This document shows, one piece after another, positions 7,750 through 16,220 of a stretch of 16,220 nt of DNA (within the stretch, counting starts at the first letter, position 1; each line of letters opens with the position of its first letter). The notes beneath the pieces are model-generated. The model was not told the origin of the DNA. It ran no database searches and was given only the letters and a program-made list of their open reading frames with translations. Source of the DNA: Promethearchaeota archaeon (GTDB taxonomy: Archaea > Asgardarchaeota > Lokiarchaeia > Sigyniarchaeales > SOKP01). The DNA lies in assembly GCA_048938895.1 (NCBI GenBank), contig JBHLLU010000075.1, positions 1 through 16,220 on the forward strand, in the 5' to 3' direction. The translations under genes and the position numbers were made by a program.

Positions 7750-8107
7750 AAAAATGATTATTTTGGTTATAGGATACTTTATCACAAAGGCTTTGAGAAA
7801 ACGAAAGAATTGCTTAAATCATCAATTAAAGAGCCTCTTAATACATTAATTTAGGAAATATATTCAAAATTATTACAGACGCGGATATTCAGATGAACAG
7901 ATTGTAGAAAAAATGGAATTCTTCCAAAGAGCGGCCCAAAGACCGCATGAACGAGAAGAAGGGAGATTTAGAGATCCAATTCTTTCACTTGAGTATCATT
8001 TAAAAGATTGGTTTGATGATGAATGTAATACTCCTGCTCGAATAAGAGAATTTTTATTATCTCATACCCTAAGAGAATTTTTTAATAGATACTCACGAGG
8101 AAATTAA
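7750..8107 (+). pseudogene. Possible degraded gene remnant containing the 64-aa ORF 7913..8107
   Basis: The frame of ORF 7913 stays open upstream to 7850 (FRKYIQNYYRRGYSDEQIVEK-M). An adjacent frame upstream reads NDYFGYRILYHKGFEKTKELLKSSIKEPLNTLI* and would join it if one T were removed at about 7850-7852. No family recognised. Confidence 0.3.
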
Positions 8108-8200: not shown

Positions 8201-8623
8201 ATGGGTAAAGACACACCGTTTGTAATGGAAGGTGATGATGAATTTGATGTCGAATTGACCATTTATAAATTAATTGGATATAAGTATCCGGATTATAAGG
8301 ATGATGCTCCTGAATCTTTGCCTCCTCGAGAACTACTAGAAAAACATCTGTTAGATCCTAGCAGTAAATTGCGAAAATTGTTAGATGATTGTAAGATTGG
8401 TTATTTGGAATTTCTGATTCTTGGGGGACTCATTTTAAAGACTGGGGCAACGCTTCCTGAGAAATTAAAAGAGAAAATATTAAAAACGGCCCAATGGAAA
8501 ATAGAGAAAGATCGGTGGAAATATACTGATAACGAATTTAAAAAATTAAGAAAAGATTTTCTTGAAGATTTTCGAGAAAAAATAGAAAATCATAGAGTAG
8601 GTGTTAAAACAGATGTTTTATAA
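8201..8623 (+). CDS. Hypothetical protein (140 aa)
   Basis: Open frame with typical codon usage, GGTGA SD and upstream TATA-like box; no recognised family. Confidence 0.7.
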   Translation: MGKDTPFVMEGDDEFDVELTIYKLIGYKYPDYKDDAPESLPPRELLEKHLLDPSSKLRKLLDDCKIGYLEFLILGGLILKTGATLPEKLKEKILKTAQWKIEKDRWKYTDNEFKKLRKDFLEDFREKIENHRVGVKTDVL

Positions 8624-8646: not shown

Positions 8647-8831
8647 GTATTTAAGATTTTAGTAAAAATCGAAAATTTTTTATTTTTTAGTGTATTATTT
8701 TTCTTACAGTGAAAAGCTTGTCACCTTTTTTCTTAACAAAGTGTTTTATTAAAATTATAAGAGGATGTTTTCTTCCATGAAAAGTCCTTTTATGCTTAAA
8801 ATTATAATGTTTATGGAGGTATTATAAATTT

Positions 8832-8837
8832 GGAGGT
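8832..8837 (+). promoter_or_regulatory. Shine-Dalgarno for rpoA1
   Basis: GGAGGT 9 nt before ATG 8847; a second TGGAGGTATT copy lies 17 nt upstream (8814-8823). Confidence 0.65.
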
Positions 8838-8846
8838 ATTTAGCTT

Positions 8847-11800
8847 ATGAGTTATACGTTCTCACGAACCAAAATGATTGAAAAAATCAAGTTTGGCTTG
8901 CTTAGTCCTGATGAAATACGAAAAATGTCTGCAGCTCGTATTATAACCGCTGACACGTATGATGAGGATGGTTTACCAATTCCTTCTGGTCTTATGGACC
9001 AACGGCTTGGAACGATTGAGCCGGGACAACGTTGCCAAACTTGCGGTAATCTTGTATCGAATTGTATGGGGCATTTTGGGCATATAGATGGTATTCTGGT
9101 TAATTTAATTAGCCAGATCTGAGGTCTGATCACTCAGAACAAAGATATCCTCAGTTCGAGGAACCAGTATAAAACTCGCCCGCCCCGTCATTCATGTAGG
9201 GTATGCAAAAAAAGTTTTAAAGGTATTGCGTAGTATATGTCCGGAATGCTCTCGTTTAATGCTCACAGAAGAAGAAAAGGATAAGTTTAGGCAAGAGCAA
9301 ATCAAACACAGAAAAATCTTTTTTGAAGGTGATGAGGATGCTGCGAAAATTGTGTTTAAACGTGCTAGAAAGTCTAAAATCTGCCCATATTGCAGCGCTA
9401 AAAAGAAAAAAATCATTATTGAGAAACCTACTACTTTTTACGAAGAAGAGGAAGGAAAGGGATCTCGTAGACTAACTCCTATTGAGATTTTAGAACGTCT
9501 TAAAAAAATGAGTGATGTTGACCTTAGAATCTTAGGTATATCTCCTGAAAATGCGCGATTAGAATGGGTTATTTTTACCGTACTTCCCATACCTCCGGTA
9601 TGTGCTAGACCGTCTATTACATTAGATAGTGGTATTCGGTCTGAAGATGACTTAACTCATAAACTTGTTGATGTTATACGAATCAATCAAAGGTTAAGAG
9701 AAAATATTGATGCTGGAGCCCCTCATTTAATTGTTGAGGATCTATGGGAATTATTACAATATCATATAACTACTTATTTTGATAATCAAGTTTCTGGTAT
9801 ACCTCCTGCCAGACATCGTTCGGGGAGAGCCCTTAGAACGTTAACTCAGAGGCTAAAAGGTAAAGAAGGAAGGTTTCGAAGTAATCTAAGTGGAAAACGA
9901 GTAGATTTTTCTGCGAGAAGCGTAATTTCACCTAATCCGTATATTAGCATAAACGAGGTTGGCGTTCCTATCGAAATTGCTAAAATTCTAACTATTCCAA
10001 CTAATGTGAATGATTGGAATATTGAAGAAATGAAACAAATGGTTTTGAATGGTCCATTTCGACATCCAGGAGCAAATTACATTATACGAAATGATCGTAG
10101 ACGAATTGACCTTCGTTATGTGAAAAATCGAAAGATTATAGCCGATATGTTGGCTCCAGGATTTACAGTTGAGCGTCATCTAAATGATGGTGATTTAGTT
10201 TTATTTAATCGACAGCCTTCACTGCATAGGATGTCAATCATGGCTCATGAAGTAAAAATTATGGATGGACGAACTTTTCGGCTAAATTTAACAGTATGTC
10301 CCCCTTACAATGCTGATTTTGATGGGGATGAAATGAATTTACATGTACCTCAAAGTGAGGAAGCTCGAACCGAAGCGGAGCTACTTCTAAAAGTTCAAGA
10401 GCACATTTTATCACCTCGTTTTGGAGGACCTATTTTAGGAGGAACTCAGGATTTCATTTCAAGTGTGTTTCAATTCACGAGCAAAGACTCTTTATTTACG
10501 AAAAAAGAAGCATTAAATTTATTTTATATTGGAAGAATATTTGAATATCATCCAGATATTAAATTAGAGGAATTAAACCCAGTAACTACTGATCCAGTTC
10601 CCTTATATTCAGGAAAGGATATATTTAGCAGTTTATTTCCTGACGATTTAAATATCAAAGTAAAATCTAAGTTTTGCAAGAAATGCGATGTCTGTGAAGA
10701 AGAAGATTGCCCTTACGATGCTTATGTGGTAATTAAAAATGGAAAACTCATAACTGGTACAATTGATGAAAACTCCTTTGGAGCTATACAACCAAATAGT
10801 ATTTTAGCACGGATCATCAAAGACCATGGAAATGCACGCGGCAGGCAATTCTTAGACAGTGCTACTAATATGTTATTATATGTAATTAGAAAGAATGGTA
10901 TGACCATGGGTTTAGATGAGGTTTATGTACATGGTCAGGCATATGAAAAAATTAAATCAATCTTAAAAGAAGCAAACCAAGAATCTGATAAATTAATTAA
11001 AGCCTTTTTAGAGAATGATACAGAAATTCTTAAACGAGCTCCTGGTCGTTCAATGAGAGAGACATTGGAATTAAGAATACGTCAGGTGTTAGCAGAAGCT
11101 CGAAAGAAGGCAGAAGAATCAGCCGCTGAATTCATAGGTGACGAAGCACATTCAGTTATAATGACTAAGTCTGGAGCAAGAGGAAATATATTAAATTTAG
11201 GACAGATGTCTGCGGTTGTAGGGCAACAAGCTATAAGGGGTGAAAGAATTAATAGAGGGTATAGTAGTCGAACATTACCTCATTTCAAAGTTAATGATCT
11301 CTCACCAAAATCTAGAGGGTTTGTATCTTCATCTTATCGAAATGGATTAAAACCTGTAGAATTTTTCTTCCATGCTATGGGGGGAAGAGAAGGATTAGTT
11401 GACACTGCTGTAAGAACATCTACAAGTGGATACATGCAACGGAGATTGGTAAATGCGTTACAGGATATGGTTGTAGAAAATGATGGAACAGTCAGAAACT
11501 CAGACAAAAATATTATTCAATTCAAGTTTGGTGATGATGGCATCGATGCAATGCATACTGATCATGGAGCAGCAGTGAATTTAGATGTATTATTATTAAA
11601 AGCTAAAGCACTTGATGTCGATAGTATTCGTAAAGAAATTAAACAAGCACCAGTACCTTCAAAAACTATCACTAAAACAAAAAAGAAAGCTTCTGAAGTT
11701 AAACCAGAAAAAACAGCCCTACCAAAAAAAGAACCTAAGAAAGAAGAAGAACCAAAGCAAAAAGGGGAAAAAGTTGATGAAGATACTTTAATTAAACAGT

Positions 11801-11889
11801 TTGAAGAGGAAATGGGAAAGAATGCTATTTGGAGAGGAAAAGAAACAAAAGCTTATTTAGATTGGAAAGAAGAAAAATTAGGAAATTAA
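8847..11889 (+). CDS. rpoA1: DNA-directed RNA polymerase subunit A' (Rpo1N), two exons: join(8847..9087,9173..11889), 985 aa after splicing
   Basis: Exon 1: [16 protein letters not shown]...GLMDQRLG...CQTCG...CMGHFGHI. Exon 2 continues (E)[10 protein letters not shown]...CPECSR...GKRVDFSAR...NRQPSLH...catalytic NADFDGD...[13 protein letters not shown]...GYMQRRL. The supplied ORFs 8847..9122 and 9226..11889 are two pieces of one gene in different frames; 241+2717 nt = 986 codons including the stop. Confidence 0.93.
9088..9172 (+). other. Candidate bulge-helix-bulge/-loop (tRNA-endonuclease type) intron in rpoA1 mRNA, 85 nt
   Basis: Central 4-bp helix ATAT(9082-85)/GTAT(9167-70); 3-nt bulges AG^A(9086-88) and AA^A(9171-73); intron-closing helix TGGT(9089-92)/ACCA(9163-66). 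Cleavage after the second base of each bulge gives CAT ATA G|AA CTC GCC = H-I-E-L-A. Stops occur at 9120-22 (exon-1 frame) and 9127-29 (exon-2 frame). Confidence 0.85.
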
Positions 11890-11904
11890 AAAATCATAAA
11901 ATAA

Positions 11905-13113
<1,209 letters not shown>

Positions 13114-13192
13114 AACTCCTTTTAAAAAAATAAAATACTAAAAAATTAAATTATTTTTATTACTAATTATATAGACACGATTTGAAAATATC

Positions 13193-13564
13193 ATGGCAAA
13201 GAAGAAAATAAATAACGTTACAGATAAGGTTGATTTAAGCCGTAAGAAAAAGAAGGAATTCGATGTTGATACGAATATTAGAGTAGCATATAAAACAGGA
13301 AAAATAATATATGGGAAAAATAACGTATTGAAATATCTAAGAAATGCCTCCTTTAAGATGATTATTATTGCTAATAATTGTCCAGTAGATTTAGTAAACC
13401 AATTAAATCACTATATTTCTCTTATGAAAGATAAAATGTATATTCATAGGTATAAAGGTTCCAGTTGGGATCTAGGCTTAACATGTGCGAAACCTTATAT
13501 GATCTCAGTAATTGGTATAATAAATGAGGGAGATTCTGACATTTTATCTTTGAGGGCTCGATAA
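13193..13564 (+). CDS. rpl30e: 50S ribosomal protein L30e (eL30)
   Basis: KTGKIIYG...IIIANNCP...YKGSSWDLGLTCAKPY.IS...EGDSDIL; conserved position after rpoA2. Confidence 0.93.
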   Translation: MAKKKINNVTDKVDLSRKKKKEFDVDTNIRVAYKTGKIIYGKNNVLKYLRNASFKMIIIANNCPVDLVNQLNHYISLMKDKMYIHRYKGSSWDLGLTCAKPYMISVIGIINEGDSDILSLRAR

Positions 13565-13583
13565 GATTAATAATATATGCTAA

Positions 13584-14069
13584 ATGGTAGCTATGCTAAA
13601 AAAAAATATTAAAATTGATAGGGAAGCAATGGAACTTATCTCATTGTTTAATAACATTTCAGGAGCTATTATAAAAGATTGCCTAATATTTAAAAACCCA
13701 GAAAATGATTCTGAGGTTATTATATTCCTTGTAAAAGAACAAGATGTGGGGAAAGCAATTGGAAAAGCAGGTGAACATGTTAAAGATTTAAAATCAAAAC
13801 TCAATAAAAAAATTGATGTTATTGCTTTTTCAGAAAGTCTTCAAAAATTTATACAGAATATACTTCAAACCACTAAAAACTCAATTATCGTTCAAAATAT
13901 AGAGATAAAAGAGAGCAGAAATTTCAAAAAAACAGTGATTATTACTGTTAGACCTCAAGATCGCGGAAAAGCGATTGGGAAAGATGGATCAATGATCAGA
14001 AAAATAAAAGTACTTGTTTTAAGGTATTTTGAGGTCGACAATGTAATAATCAATACTAAAAATATCTAA
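13584..14069 (+). CDS. nusA: Archaeal transcription elongation factor NusA (two KH domains)
   Basis: Two GKAIGK.G KH motifs; conserved position after rpl30e. The start could be the ATG at 13593. Confidence 0.93.
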   Translation: MVAMLKKNIKIDREAMELISLFNNISGAIIKDCLIFKNPENDSEVIIFLVKEQDVGKAIGKAGEHVKDLKSKLNKKIDVIAFSESLQKFIQNILQTTKNSIIVQNIEIKESRNFKKTVIITVRPQDRGKAIGKDGSMIRKIKVLVLRYFEVDNVIINTKNI

Positions 14070-14175
14070 AGTTTCTGAATTTTCCATTCTAATCCCAAAT
14101 CCTTTTAATTACGCCATGCTCTACTTATTATTAAAAACGATAGTTATATCTTTCTTTACATAACTGAAAGTTGGA

Positions 14176-15435
14176 TTGGTAGTTATTATGTCATCTAAGC
14201 TCTATAATGAGCAAGCAGCAATTAATCATATAAACACATTAGCTTTCAACCGTCATGCATCAACAGAAGGAGAGACAAAATGTCTTAATTATATTTCTCA
14301 GGAATTGAAGAAGGAAAATATATCTCCTACAATCGAACCTTTTGAATGGTCTAATACGTTATCAATTGTGATGAAGCTTTTTTTTTCCTACCTCTTTTTA
14401 CTAATACTTACAGAACAAATTTTATTACTCTTCCCTAAGCTTACATGGATTGTACTTATTCTAAATGTGTTATTTTTTGCGATAATTTATCTAGGGGGGA
14501 AATATCTTTTTAGTAGCACTCAAGTAAGGTTCATCGGTAAGAAAAAAGAGGCTAAAAATCTAATTTTAACCATTCAATGCAAAGATCTCCATCCTAAACG
14601 CCCAGTCATAATTTTCACAGCTCATCATGACACTGCTTCAATTCGATATTCGATGACAATGACTAAGTATTTATACCTAATAGAAGCTTTACTTTTACTC
14701 GTTTTTATTATTTTAACCTTCATTATTTCAATCTGGTCTCTTTTAGTTTTATTTTCAAATTCTCAACTTAACGATACTTACTGCTTGATTAGAAATATAA
14801 TTTTAATTATAGGGACTATTGAATTGATTTTAATATTAGTATCTTTAGGTAACAATAAATCGGATAAATCTATAGGTTCAATTGATAACGCCAGTGGAGT
14901 AGCAGTTCTATTGGAATTAGCTAAATTAGTGAAAAAAGAACCTTTGCAGAAGACTGATGTAATCTTTCTATGGTGCGGAGCTGAGGAACGAGGTTTATGG
15001 GGTTCTAAACAATTTTGTAAGACCCATTATGAAGAACTAATTAATGATTACGATATGGATAAATCCTATAATATAAACATCGATATGATAGGTGCTTATG
15101 TAGGCCTTTTAGATAAAATAGGTTTATTTAAGAAAAGGAATTTAAATAAAAATCTTAATAGCGTTTTGGAAGCATCAGCAACCCAACAGAAAATGACTCT
15201 TAAAAAAGAATGGAATAAAATTGGAGCGGGTTCAAGTGATCACCTTTCATTTCGTGCATATTCCAAAAAACATGAAAATAAGGAGTTTCAGGTTACCTCT
15301 TTCAGCTCTGATGATGATGTGAAATTTATACATTCAAAACGAGATACTCCCGACAAATGTTCTGCTGAAAAGCTTAATGATTGTATTGAGATTTGTTATA
15401 ATGCAATAAAAAGTCTTGATTTAAGGGTGGAATGA
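14176..15435 (+). CDS. Membrane-embedded M28-family zinc metallopeptidase
   Basis: AHHD, DNASG, GAEERGL, NIDMIG, SSDH and IHSKRD motifs, with two pairs of hydrophobic helices inserted. The likely true start is ATG 14188. Confidence 0.85.
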   Translation: MVVIMSSKLYNEQAAINHINTLAFNRHASTEGETKCLNYISQELKKENISPTIEPFEWSNTLSIVMKLFFSYLFLLILTEQILLLFPKLTWIVLILNVLFFAIIYLGGKYLFSSTQVRFIGKKKEAKNLILTIQCKDLHPKRPVIIFTAHHDTASIRYSMTMTKYLYLIEALLLLVFIILTFIISIWSLLVLFSNSQLNDTYCLIRNIILIIGTIELILILVSLGNNKSDKSIGSIDNASGVAVLLELAKLVKKEPLQKTDVIFLWCGAEERGLWGSKQFCKTHYEELINDYDMDKSYNINIDMIGAYVGLLDKIGLFKKRNLNKNLNSVLEASATQQKMTLKKEWNKIGAGSSDHLSFRAYSKKHENKEFQVTSFSSDDDVKFIHSKRDTPDKCSAEKLNDCIEICYNAIKSLDLRVE

Positions 15436-15562
15436 GATTTCCTTATTTTCCCTCTTTATATTATGAGAAAAACTAGCATTAAATTAGTTCACATCCATAA
15501 ATTTTAAGTTCTAGGATATATTTTTTAACCCTATACAAAATTATATTTTGGTGACTAAATAA

Positions 15563-15991
15563 GTGCCAAAAGGACTATATGCTGCCAGAAAATTAAAAGC
15601 AAATAGAAAAAAGTTTAAATGGTCAAAGACCAAATATAAGAGAAGGAAACTCAAATTAAAACAGAAAGTTGATCCTTTGGAAGGAAGTCCTCAAGCTTTA
15701 GGAATTGTCCTTCAGAAAGTCGGTCGAGAGAGTAAACAGCCTAATTCAGCAATAAGAAAGTGTGTAAGAGTTCAACTAAAGAAAAACGGAAAAGGTGTAA
15801 CTGCTTTTCTTCCAGGAGACGGTGCGCTAAACTTCATCGAGGAGCATGATAGAGTCGTCGTTGAAGGAATCGGGGGTGCCAAGGGAAGATCAATAGGGGA
15901 TCTTCCAGGAGTGAGATATAAAGTTGTTAAGGTAAATGGAGTAAGTTTAGATGCGTTGATCAGTGGACGTAAAGAAAAGCCATTGCGCTAA
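15563..15991 (+). CDS. rps12: 30S ribosomal protein S12 (uS12, archaeal/eukaryotic S23 type)
   Basis: GLYAARKL...[15 protein letters not shown]...[10 protein letters not shown]; GTG start preceded by GGTGA. Confidence 0.97.
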
Positions 15992-16005
15992 TGAGGTTAT
16001 CAAAC

Positions 16006-16220
16006 ATGAGTAAAGTCAAAACTGAAATAAAATTCTTTAATAAATGGTCCTTTGATAATATAACTGTAAGCGATCAAACTTTAGAAAAATATATTAATTT
16101 AAAACCGATTATTATCCCTCATTCTGCTGGAAGGCATGAACATAGACGATTTTGGAAATCTTCTAAAGTATCAATTATCGAACGTTTTACAAATAGATTA
16201 CTTTCTCCTGGATTTATTGG
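16006..16220 (+). CDS. rps7: 30S ribosomal protein S7 (uS7), partial, runs off the right edge
   Basis: Read manually: MSKVKTEIKFFNKWSFDNITVSDQTLEKYINLKPIIIPHSAGRHEHRRFWKSSKVSIIERFTNRL; GAGGT SD at 15993-15997; follows rps12. Confidence 0.92.
   Translation, partial: MSKVKTEIKFFNKWSFDNITVSDQTLEKYINLKPIIIPHSAGRHEHRRFWKSSKVSIIERFTNRLLSPGFI

Follow-up and report, generated by a model that had tools for sequence, protein, structure and literature searches.

The cbf5 pre-mRNA intron of Crenarchaeota is said to have been treated by Watanabe (2002) and Yoshinari (2006), among others. This intron, of the bulge-helix-bulge (BHB) type, lies in a coding region, with splicing shown experimentally (Yokobori 2009, PMC2738675), and the covered part of a 2020 paper gives cbf5 as the only case besides an intron in a 5' untranslated region (5'-UTR) (PMC7714728). 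The same part of that paper describes the 5'-UTR BHB intron of Haloferax volcanii HVO_1309 as an mRNA substrate of the tRNA-splicing endonuclease EndA, confirmed in vivo and in vitro. The tRNA introns of Thermoproteales and of Asgard archaea, in the portions covered of PMC4090602, PMC11291895, and bioRxiv 10.64898/2026.10.13.758758, are small (11-129 nucleotides [nt] according to a review), lie several to a gene, result from repeated gains, and have a BHB or relaxed HBh' architecture, features that recur in the element described here. We analyzed a stretch of 16,220 nt from a Promethearchaeota archaeon (assembly GCA_048938895.1, contig JBHLLU010000075.1; the whole stretch is called the window, and it is contig C159 of its own genome, G000), in which rpoA1, the gene of RNA polymerase (RNAP) subunit A', is broken by an 85-nt insert. 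We conclude, with a probability of roughly 0.87 and judging from sequence comparisons, that positions 9088 to 9172 are an archaeal BHB intron in the pre-mRNA of the only rpoA1 of G000.

The rpoA1 insert resembles the cbf5 intron in being a short intron inside an archaeal protein-coding gene, with removal at a BHB by the tRNA-splicing endonuclease, predicted in the case of rpoA1. It differs in lying in another gene (RNAP A') and another phylum (Asgard), and splicing of cbf5 has been shown experimentally, whereas that of rpoA1 is predicted. The HVO_1309 intron, as described in the covered part of its source, sits in an untranslated leader and breaks no reading frame, whereas the rpoA1 insert breaks an essential coding sequence. 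In contrast to our locus, no introns of protein-coding genes are reported in the portions covered of the three sources on Thermoproteales and Asgard tRNA introns. The corresponding portions of the two Asgard tRNA-intron papers (PMC11291895 and bioRxiv 10.64898/2026.10.13.758758) and of a 2026 review of noncanonical splicing mention no mRNA introns, and the word mRNA is absent from the covered text of the preprint. Literature searches found no coding-region BHB intron beyond cbf5; subscription journals and the supplements of PMC11291895 and of the 2026 preprint, which may list non-tRNA introns, lay outside their coverage. These searches agree with an initial annotation of this DNA, made from the letters alone, which knew of no such intron in an RNAP gene or in Asgard mRNA. 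Mechanisms of this kind are already known; what is new, as far as the literature was searched, is the gene that hosts the intron, the lineage, the occurrence of several sites, and the polymorphism described below.

We then looked into the interruption itself. rpoA1 spans positions 8847 to 11889 of the forward strand. Exon 1 (8847 to 9087) comprises 80 codons and the first base of codon 81 and matches positions 2-74 of the Pfam profile RNA_pol_Rpb1_1 (E value, 3e-21); exon 2 (9173 to 11889), from bases 2 and 3 of codon 81 to the stop codon, continues this profile at positions 76-312 and contains Rpb1 domains 2, 3, 4, and 5. Because a single residue, that of the split codon (G, then AA), is absent between profile positions 74 and 76, the insert measures exactly 85 nt. 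Exon 1 ends just past the first clamp zinc site (C-x2-C-x6-C-x2-H), which is followed by FGHI. From there, the frame of the ATG at 8847 runs through 11 further residues to a stop at 9120-9122, and the downstream frame has a stop at 9127-9129, after which conserved sequence resumes. The insert shifts the frame by +1 and contains stop codons in all three frames, which bears out the frame shift and the stops in the two relevant frames reported by the initial annotation. When 9087 was joined to 9173 in silico, we obtained an open reading frame (ORF) of 2958 nt and 985 amino acids (aa) with a single terminal stop, in which the junction reads GHIELARPV, codon GAA (Glu81) is restored, and 880 aa align with an uninterrupted relative at 94.7% identity. 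The annotated coordinates, base pairs, and ORF length all hold.

The two halves could, in principle, be separate genes. A 91-aa N-terminal protein and a C-terminal fragment, with TTG 9226 as its start codon, would then be translated separately and assemble, as the ORF list (8847-9122, 91 aa; 9226-11889, 887 aa) would allow, and archaeal RNAP large subunits are naturally split elsewhere, into A' and A''. Such an arrangement would, however, leave segment 9173-9225, which is strictly conserved in the protein, upstream of the first possible in-frame start codon; moreover, carriers of the 30-nt inserts described below have no start codon after the insert, and the gene is continuous in sister genomes. 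We therefore give a split gene next to no credence. Two classes of intervening sequence were also rejected: a self-splicing group I or II intron, as the insert has only 85 nt and no Rfam family reaches its gathering score in a scan of 8700-9500, and an intein, as 85 nt shift the frame and carry stops in every frame.

The ends of the insert and the adjoining exons can be folded into a BHB motif. In the central helix (H), exon positions 9082-9085 pair with intron positions 9167-9170 over 4 base pairs (bp), one of them G.U. It is flanked by two 3-nt bulges, AGA (9086-9088) and AAA (9171-9173). The inner helix (h') joins 9089-9092 to 9163-9166 by four of four pairs. The outer helix (h) joins 9077-9081 of exon 1 to 9174-9178 of exon 2 by four of five pairs, and since the mismatch, C9081.A9174, adjoins the bulge, we class this helix as relaxed. 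Inside the intron, three hairpins are predicted at 9095-9117 (10 bp in G000), 9118-9138, and 9148-9162. In the part of PMC4090602 covered, the motif is defined for tRNA by a central helix that takes in the first two anticodon bases and by an intron at position 37/38; it is from this definition that cleavage after the second base of each bulge is derived. This rule predicts cuts at 9087/9088, in agreement with the protein alignment, and at 9172/9173, in agreement with the Pfam junction. The annotated coincidence of the structure-predicted and protein-predicted junctions is thereby borne out. By chance, the motif definition fits about 1.1e-4 of the possible (site, length) pairs (197,686 of about 1.74e9 in G000), and just two such pairs, equivalent to each other, restore the ORF. 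The region folds more stably than shuffled sequence (z score, -4.5; 0 of 200 shuffles equally stable).

G000 encodes the enzymes that such splicing would use. We found two diverged full-length EndA paralogues (202 aa, C83:69404-70012, and 200 aa, C123:60543-61145; tRNA_int_endo above the cut-off) and one RtcB of 496 aa (C5:38932-40422). The best solved relatives of the EndA paralogues are tRNA-splicing endonucleases; for the first paralogue, they are chains 3p1z_B and 3ajv_B, which we take to be catalytic subunits of a crenarchaeal two-subunit enzyme. ARAGORN called 34 tRNAs in G000, including one tRNA-Sec, and 17 of the calls have introns, although two, whose introns measure 771 and 2807 nt, are probably false. 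According to the covered parts of the respective sources, two-subunit EndA is lenient toward relaxed motifs (PMC4090602), and two EndA paralogues occur in 44 of 60 Asgard genomes (bioRxiv 10.64898/2026.10.13.758758). The two-paralogue background and the intron-rich tRNA genes of G000 are shared with the tRNA introns of Thermoproteales and Asgard archaea, as far as those sources were covered; the link to a hetero-oligomeric (two-subunit) EndA and the lineage-specific presence and loss are shared with the cbf5 intron. We propose that, in the rpoA1 transcript, exon 1 (9082-9085) pairs with the intron (9167-9170) as the central helix, exon 1 (9077-9081) pairs with exon 2 (9174-9178) as the relaxed outer helix, and the two intron ends pair with each other (9089-9092 with 9163-9166), so that the 3-nt bulges would remain on opposite strands. 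EndA, probably two-subunit and therefore lenient, would cut after the second base of each bulge, and RtcB would join the exons to give codon GAA and the 985-aa subunit A'. Cleavage and ligation of the rpoA1 transcript are thus predicted from the DNA. In sum, the locus offers the central helix with its bulges, the flanking helices, an in-frame product, and compensatory changes, in a genome that encodes both EndA and RtcB.

The initial annotation had pointed to an intact second rpoA1 as a possible flaw, and we found none: the contigs of G000 (4.65 Mb in 174 contigs, 98.7% complete) contain one rpoA1 locus. It had also proposed to map DNA reads across the insert; contigs from three studies (runs X3, X5, and X6) span it. 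They differ from the window by 3 (X3, record 4), 15 (X5, record 12), and 10 (X6, record 18), and the differences that fall within the intron are mostly at loop positions or preserve pairs; for instance, C>T at 9133 in the X6 contig keeps a pair of the second hairpin as G.U. Exon 1 is 97.5% identical in protein and 78% identical in DNA to that of a related genome, G022, which indicates purifying selection. A pseudogene, or an assembly or binning artefact with a functional uninterrupted rpoA1 left unassembled, would be in line with a bin of 174 contigs with an estimated contamination of 7.5% and with contigs of relatives that end at or near the site (G063, G120, and G131). It fits poorly with the single locus in a nearly complete genome, the independent contigs, the strong selection on the exons, the covariation of the insert helices, and the inserts at the same places in 17 genomes, and we consider it very improbable. 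A search of G000 with the intron matched its own locus only (E value, 1.7e-38; seven other matches, E >= 0.34), so that a repeated mobile element similar to a miniature inverted-repeat transposable element was rejected. A C/D-box RNA within the intron was rejected as well, as no C box was seen by eye and G022 has no CUGA.

We next analyzed rpoA1 in relatives, as the initial annotation had suggested, and found both the presence/absence variation and the helix covariation that it had asked about. The order-wide search comprised 154 genomes, of which 145 matched, 128 of them in the family (135 genomes) and 17 in three sister families; rpoA1 was matched in 52 of the 54 genomes of the genus. Of the 128 family genomes with a match, 17 have verified stop- or frame-breaking inserts, at three sites within codons 43-81; none was found in the 17 genomes from the sister families or in the more distant archaeal loci examined. 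Within the genus, inserts lie in the first 181 codons of rpoA1 in 9 of 52 genomes, 42 have none, and the contig of G063 ends at the site; the remaining 720 residues are free of interruptions in all 52. Contigs end at or near this hot spot in three relatives (the end of G063:C290 and the starts of G120:C12 and G131:C11); the breaks may reflect the assembly of mixtures of intron-plus and intron-minus strains. Only G014 and G048 have split matches for these 720 residues, each divided between two contigs.

Site 0 is within codon Leu43 (G048, G049, and G096). Site 1 follows codon His79 and is occupied in 12 genomes, mostly by 30 nt (31 nt in one and 40 nt in another). Site 2, within codon Glu81, holds 85 nt in G000 and G022, 50 nt in G093, and 35 nt in G043 and G062. 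The cut sites of the rpoA1 inserts lie two bases 3' of a 4-bp helix, of which only three pairs form at site 0 of G096. The G022 intron is a homologue of that in the window, at the same site and with 62 of 85 bases identical, and its helices are, if anything, closer to the motif: the central G.U becomes A-U, and the outer C.A becomes C-G through replacement of A by G, which gives five of five outer pairs. The hairpins are kept, with three hairpin pairs changed on both sides. In the first hairpin, one pair differs in both partners and two pairs differ in a single partner; at the second, G022 has a hairpin of other sequence; and in the third, which the shorter site-2 introns of G093 and G043 retain as well, a C-G pair is replaced by U-A.

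At site 1, we aligned ten 30-nt introns, in which H pairs exon GGRC with intron GYCY, the inner helix has 7 bp, and the outer helix has 3 bp. In this alignment, 96.4% of cells are paired versus 79.4% after shuffling, a value reached by 0 of 500 shuffles, and slid partners pair in at most 56%. Both partners are changed in 8 of the 14 pairs, among them all seven pairs of the inner helix, and H contains one covarying exon-intron pair. The BHB-type intron with cuts at 9087/9088 and 9172/9173 that the initial annotation proposed therefore gains support from profile continuity, the G022 homologue, the further sites, the encoded EndA and RtcB, and the independent contigs.

G043 and G062 have 65 extra bases in rpoA1 (L041:485-599; L042:498-612, minus strand). 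HIELARPV is restored in these genomes only by removing a 30-nt intron at site 1 and a 35-nt intron at site 2 while keeping ATAG, a 4-nt micro-exon between the two. Once intron 1 is removed, the pairing of intron 2 improves from 3/4 to 4/4 in H and from 1-2/5 to 4-5/5 in the outer helix. Since the helices of intron 2 are completed only by the removal of intron 1, we predict an obligate order in which the tandem introns would be spliced, intron 1 first. G043 and G062 fall in different clades of the rpoA1 gene tree. In having several sites, and tandem introns 4 nt apart, rpoA1 differs from cbf5.

Similar inserts were found in other genes. In G000, cdhD (CO dehydrogenase/acetyl-CoA synthase delta subunit) contains a 30-nt insert (G000:C117:20988-21017, minus strand; L184:502-531) with an in-frame TAA, across which the Pfam CdhD match continues from 7-135 to 138-227; its motif has an H of four of four pairs, an inner helix of 9 bp, and the bulges TAA and AAA. 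Of the 13 genus sequences aligned, 4 have an insert at this first cdhD site, and in G005 an exon-intron pair is kept by a compensatory change. A second cdhD site, about 160 nt downstream (L191 and L195-L200), holds 36 nt in G016, G005, G019, and G022 and 33 nt in G041, G067, and G043. In rpoB, 1 of 53 matching genus genomes has an insert (G042, L182:577-607), of 31 nt, with a central helix CCTG:CAGG, 3-nt bulges, and an inner helix of eight of nine pairs at the exact ORF-restoring junction. In rpoA2, again 1 of 53 genus genomes (G020, L183:381-409) has an insert, of 29 nt, with an H of four of four pairs, 3-nt bulges, and a 9-bp inner helix, without an outer helix, at the ORF-restoring junction. 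cbf5 and rpoB of G000 itself show no interruption. In view of these inserts, the rpoA1 intron is one of a class, a population made up of small BHB introns (29-85 nt) gained and lost in protein-coding genes of the family. Two further differences from the cbf5 intron are that presence varies between very close relatives and that a single genus has at least four affected genes.

These data also bear on translational skipping of the insert, either through a hop of the ribosome such as that in phage T4 gene 60 or through other recoding. ATA at 9084-9086 and ATA at 9169-9171 (in the frame of exon 2) might serve as take-off and landing codons, and a stop and hairpins lie downstream of the take-off site. 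A hop from ATA to ATA would, however, yield H-I-K-L, whereas the sequence is H-I-E-L in all uninterrupted relatives examined. A matching His codon is absent from the 3' end of the site-1 introns, and the 31-nt rpoB and 29-nt rpoA2 inserts lack such codon pairs but have BHB motifs. The exon-intron pairs covary, which a hop would not need. A bypass element of the T4 gene 60 type was rejected on the first two of these grounds, and we regard skipping in general as highly unlikely.

A scan for other frameshifted genes with BHB ends, also suggested by the initial annotation, was run genome-wide in G000 by combining the BHB motif with the joining of ORFs, with out-of-frame joins as the control. We viewed 20 candidates, ranked by inner-helix length and taken from the stricter-rule set with intron end AA and an inner helix of at least 6 pairs. 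Four of the 20 were tested by Pfam, and one, cdhD, was real; those on C161 and C83 proved to be intact genes read in another frame, and that on C12 proved to be two neighboring genes. Most of the other 16 look like neighboring genes, because a Met stands at the downstream start. The scan thus yielded one further case in G000 but no excess over the control, the numbers for which are given next.

Several observations weigh against an intron at 9088-9172 or against the wider class. In the scan, the loose rule gave 2864 in-frame candidates versus about 2919 expected, the stricter rule gave 1146 versus 1144, and added filters gave 14 versus 9 and 16 versus 10.5, which is not significant; with no excess over the control, the scan lends no independent statistical support to many such introns. 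The outer helix of the window is imperfect, with the C.A mismatch beside the bulge. Minimum-energy and consensus folds prefer a competing register, formed by pairing of GGGC with exon 2 GCCC, and the BHB conformer lies above the minimum by +6.6 kcal/mol in G000 and +2.7 in G022 in the nearest-neighbor energy model. Among the other introns, those at site 1 need a 5-nt rather than a 3-nt 3' bulge to form the outer helix, so that we class their motifs as relaxed (HBh'-like); site 0 in G096 has a weak inner helix and an H of three of four pairs; in G043 intron 2, the inner helix opens with a mismatch; and the second cdhD site, which may have other boundaries or a relaxed motif, did not follow the strict BHB rule at the three equivalent junctions tried. 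The bin of G000 has the contamination estimate already given (7.5%). Finally, a search of sequencing runs for the stretch found no RNA run that contains it, and splicing is accordingly stated here as a prediction. X19, a run labeled metatranscriptome, covers only 8871-8980 and 9403-9449 and not the junction. An apparent joint of 9088 to 9184, with 10 other letters between, was rejected as a splice, as the DNA contig that shows it belongs to a relative without the intron.

We then asked how the introns are distributed on a gene tree built from the part of rpoA1 that has no interruptions (82 rows; some genomes have both a G name and an L name and so occur twice; distant L100, L101, L103-L106, and L108, intein-broken G095 and L080, and short G135/L074, G096, and G014 were left out). 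Carrier states need 14 changes on this tree, compared to a mean of 14.7 for shuffled labels, and 49 of 200 shuffles were as low; carriers are no more clustered than shuffled labels. Between G043 and its intron-less sister G012 (L173 and L174), identity is 96-99% on both sides of a diverged tract of about 1.6 kb with 74-92% identity, which lies directly 5' of the introns and ends there. When G045 is compared with G005 and G066 (L175 versus L176 and L177), a tract of this kind, about 350 nt long, is likewise found directly 5' of the intron site and ends at it. These diverged tracts in sister pairs indicate that presence or absence travels with recombination tracts that end at the intron; in both comparisons, gain is indistinguishable from loss.

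This distribution bears on the likely role of the intron. HAC1 and XBP1 mRNAs are cleaved at small stem-loops by a protein enzyme and joined by tRNA ligase (RtcB in metazoa), with a shift of frame, and the rpoA1 intron would share this scheme of protein-enzyme cut, ligation, and frame-shifting removal. In HAC1/XBP1, however, the endonuclease is IRE1, not the tRNA-splicing endonuclease, and the system is a conserved stress-regulated switch, against which the patchy distribution of the rpoA1 intron speaks. By analogy, EndA/RtcB activity might gate the synthesis of RNAP A': the intron lies 241 nt into an essential gene, so that unspliced mRNA would yield only a 91-aa peptide, the three hairpins of the 85-nt intron are kept between G000 and G022, and the fold is more stable than shuffled sequence. 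Nevertheless, only 9 of 52 matching genus genomes carry an rpoA1 intron, the states change 14 times on the tree and cluster like shuffled labels, near-identical sisters differ (G043 from G012, and G045 from G005 and G066), intron length and content vary freely (30, 35, 50, and 85 nt), and similar inserts occur sporadically in rpoB, rpoA2, and cdhD. We consider such a regulatory switch unlikely, and the HAC1/XBP1-like control point envisaged by the initial annotation found no support, as presence differs between near-identical sisters and carriers are scattered on the tree. The patchy distribution, the free variation in length, and the sporadic occurrence in other genes rather point to a BHB intron that is a tolerated, probably mobile element and not a regulatory device. 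More tentatively, and with somewhat less than even odds in our view, the family may carry a dynamic population of mobile BHB mini-introns that invade rpoA1, rpoB, rpoA2, and cdhD and are spread and lost by recombination tracts, whose stacking forces an order of splicing, and of which a genome might hold many, annotated as "frameshifts."

If the introns are spliced, an Asgard lineage relies on the tRNA-splicing machinery to make its catalytic RNAP subunit and, across the genus, at least three further proteins, and gene callers misannotate such genes as broken. The polymorphism between near-identical genomes would then be a natural system in which to follow how introns are gained and lost among the archaeal relatives of eukaryotes, and the tandem introns with their 4-nt micro-exon would be a testable case of ordered, structure-dependent splicing. 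If such a mobile population exists, the closest archaeal relatives of eukaryotes would possess a system of mRNA introns spliced by protein enzymes.

The closest named relatives of G000 are metagenome bins labeled Promethearchaeota or Promethearchaeia, and rpoA1 of Lokiarchaeum ossiferum is 72% identical to that of the window over 300 residues. At 8847-16218, the window has a gene block usual for archaea, with rpoA1, rpoA2, an L7Ae/L30e-family protein, a NusA-like KH protein, an M28 peptidase, and S12 (Pfam), and this block is closed by a 3'-open ORF at 15991-16218, known from the ORF list. rpoA2 (subunit A''; 11917 to 13113, forward strand; Pfam Rpb1_5) is in the same operon as rpoA1 and is uninterrupted. 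Upstream of rpoA1, the window has two ORFs without a Pfam match, at 7913-8107 and 8201-8623. rpoB of G000 is not adjacent to rpoA1 and lies on another contig (C5:19365-22733), where its neighborhood includes cbf5 (about 24.3-24.6 kb) and the RtcB gene. Elsewhere among the relatives, rpoA1 of G095 contains a 511-aa in-frame intein at about residue 456 (L168:1396-2928), with an Intein_splicing match and a weaker LAGLIDADG_3 match, and the match of L080 breaks at the same position. Very long open frames in G144 and G148 suggest further inteins.

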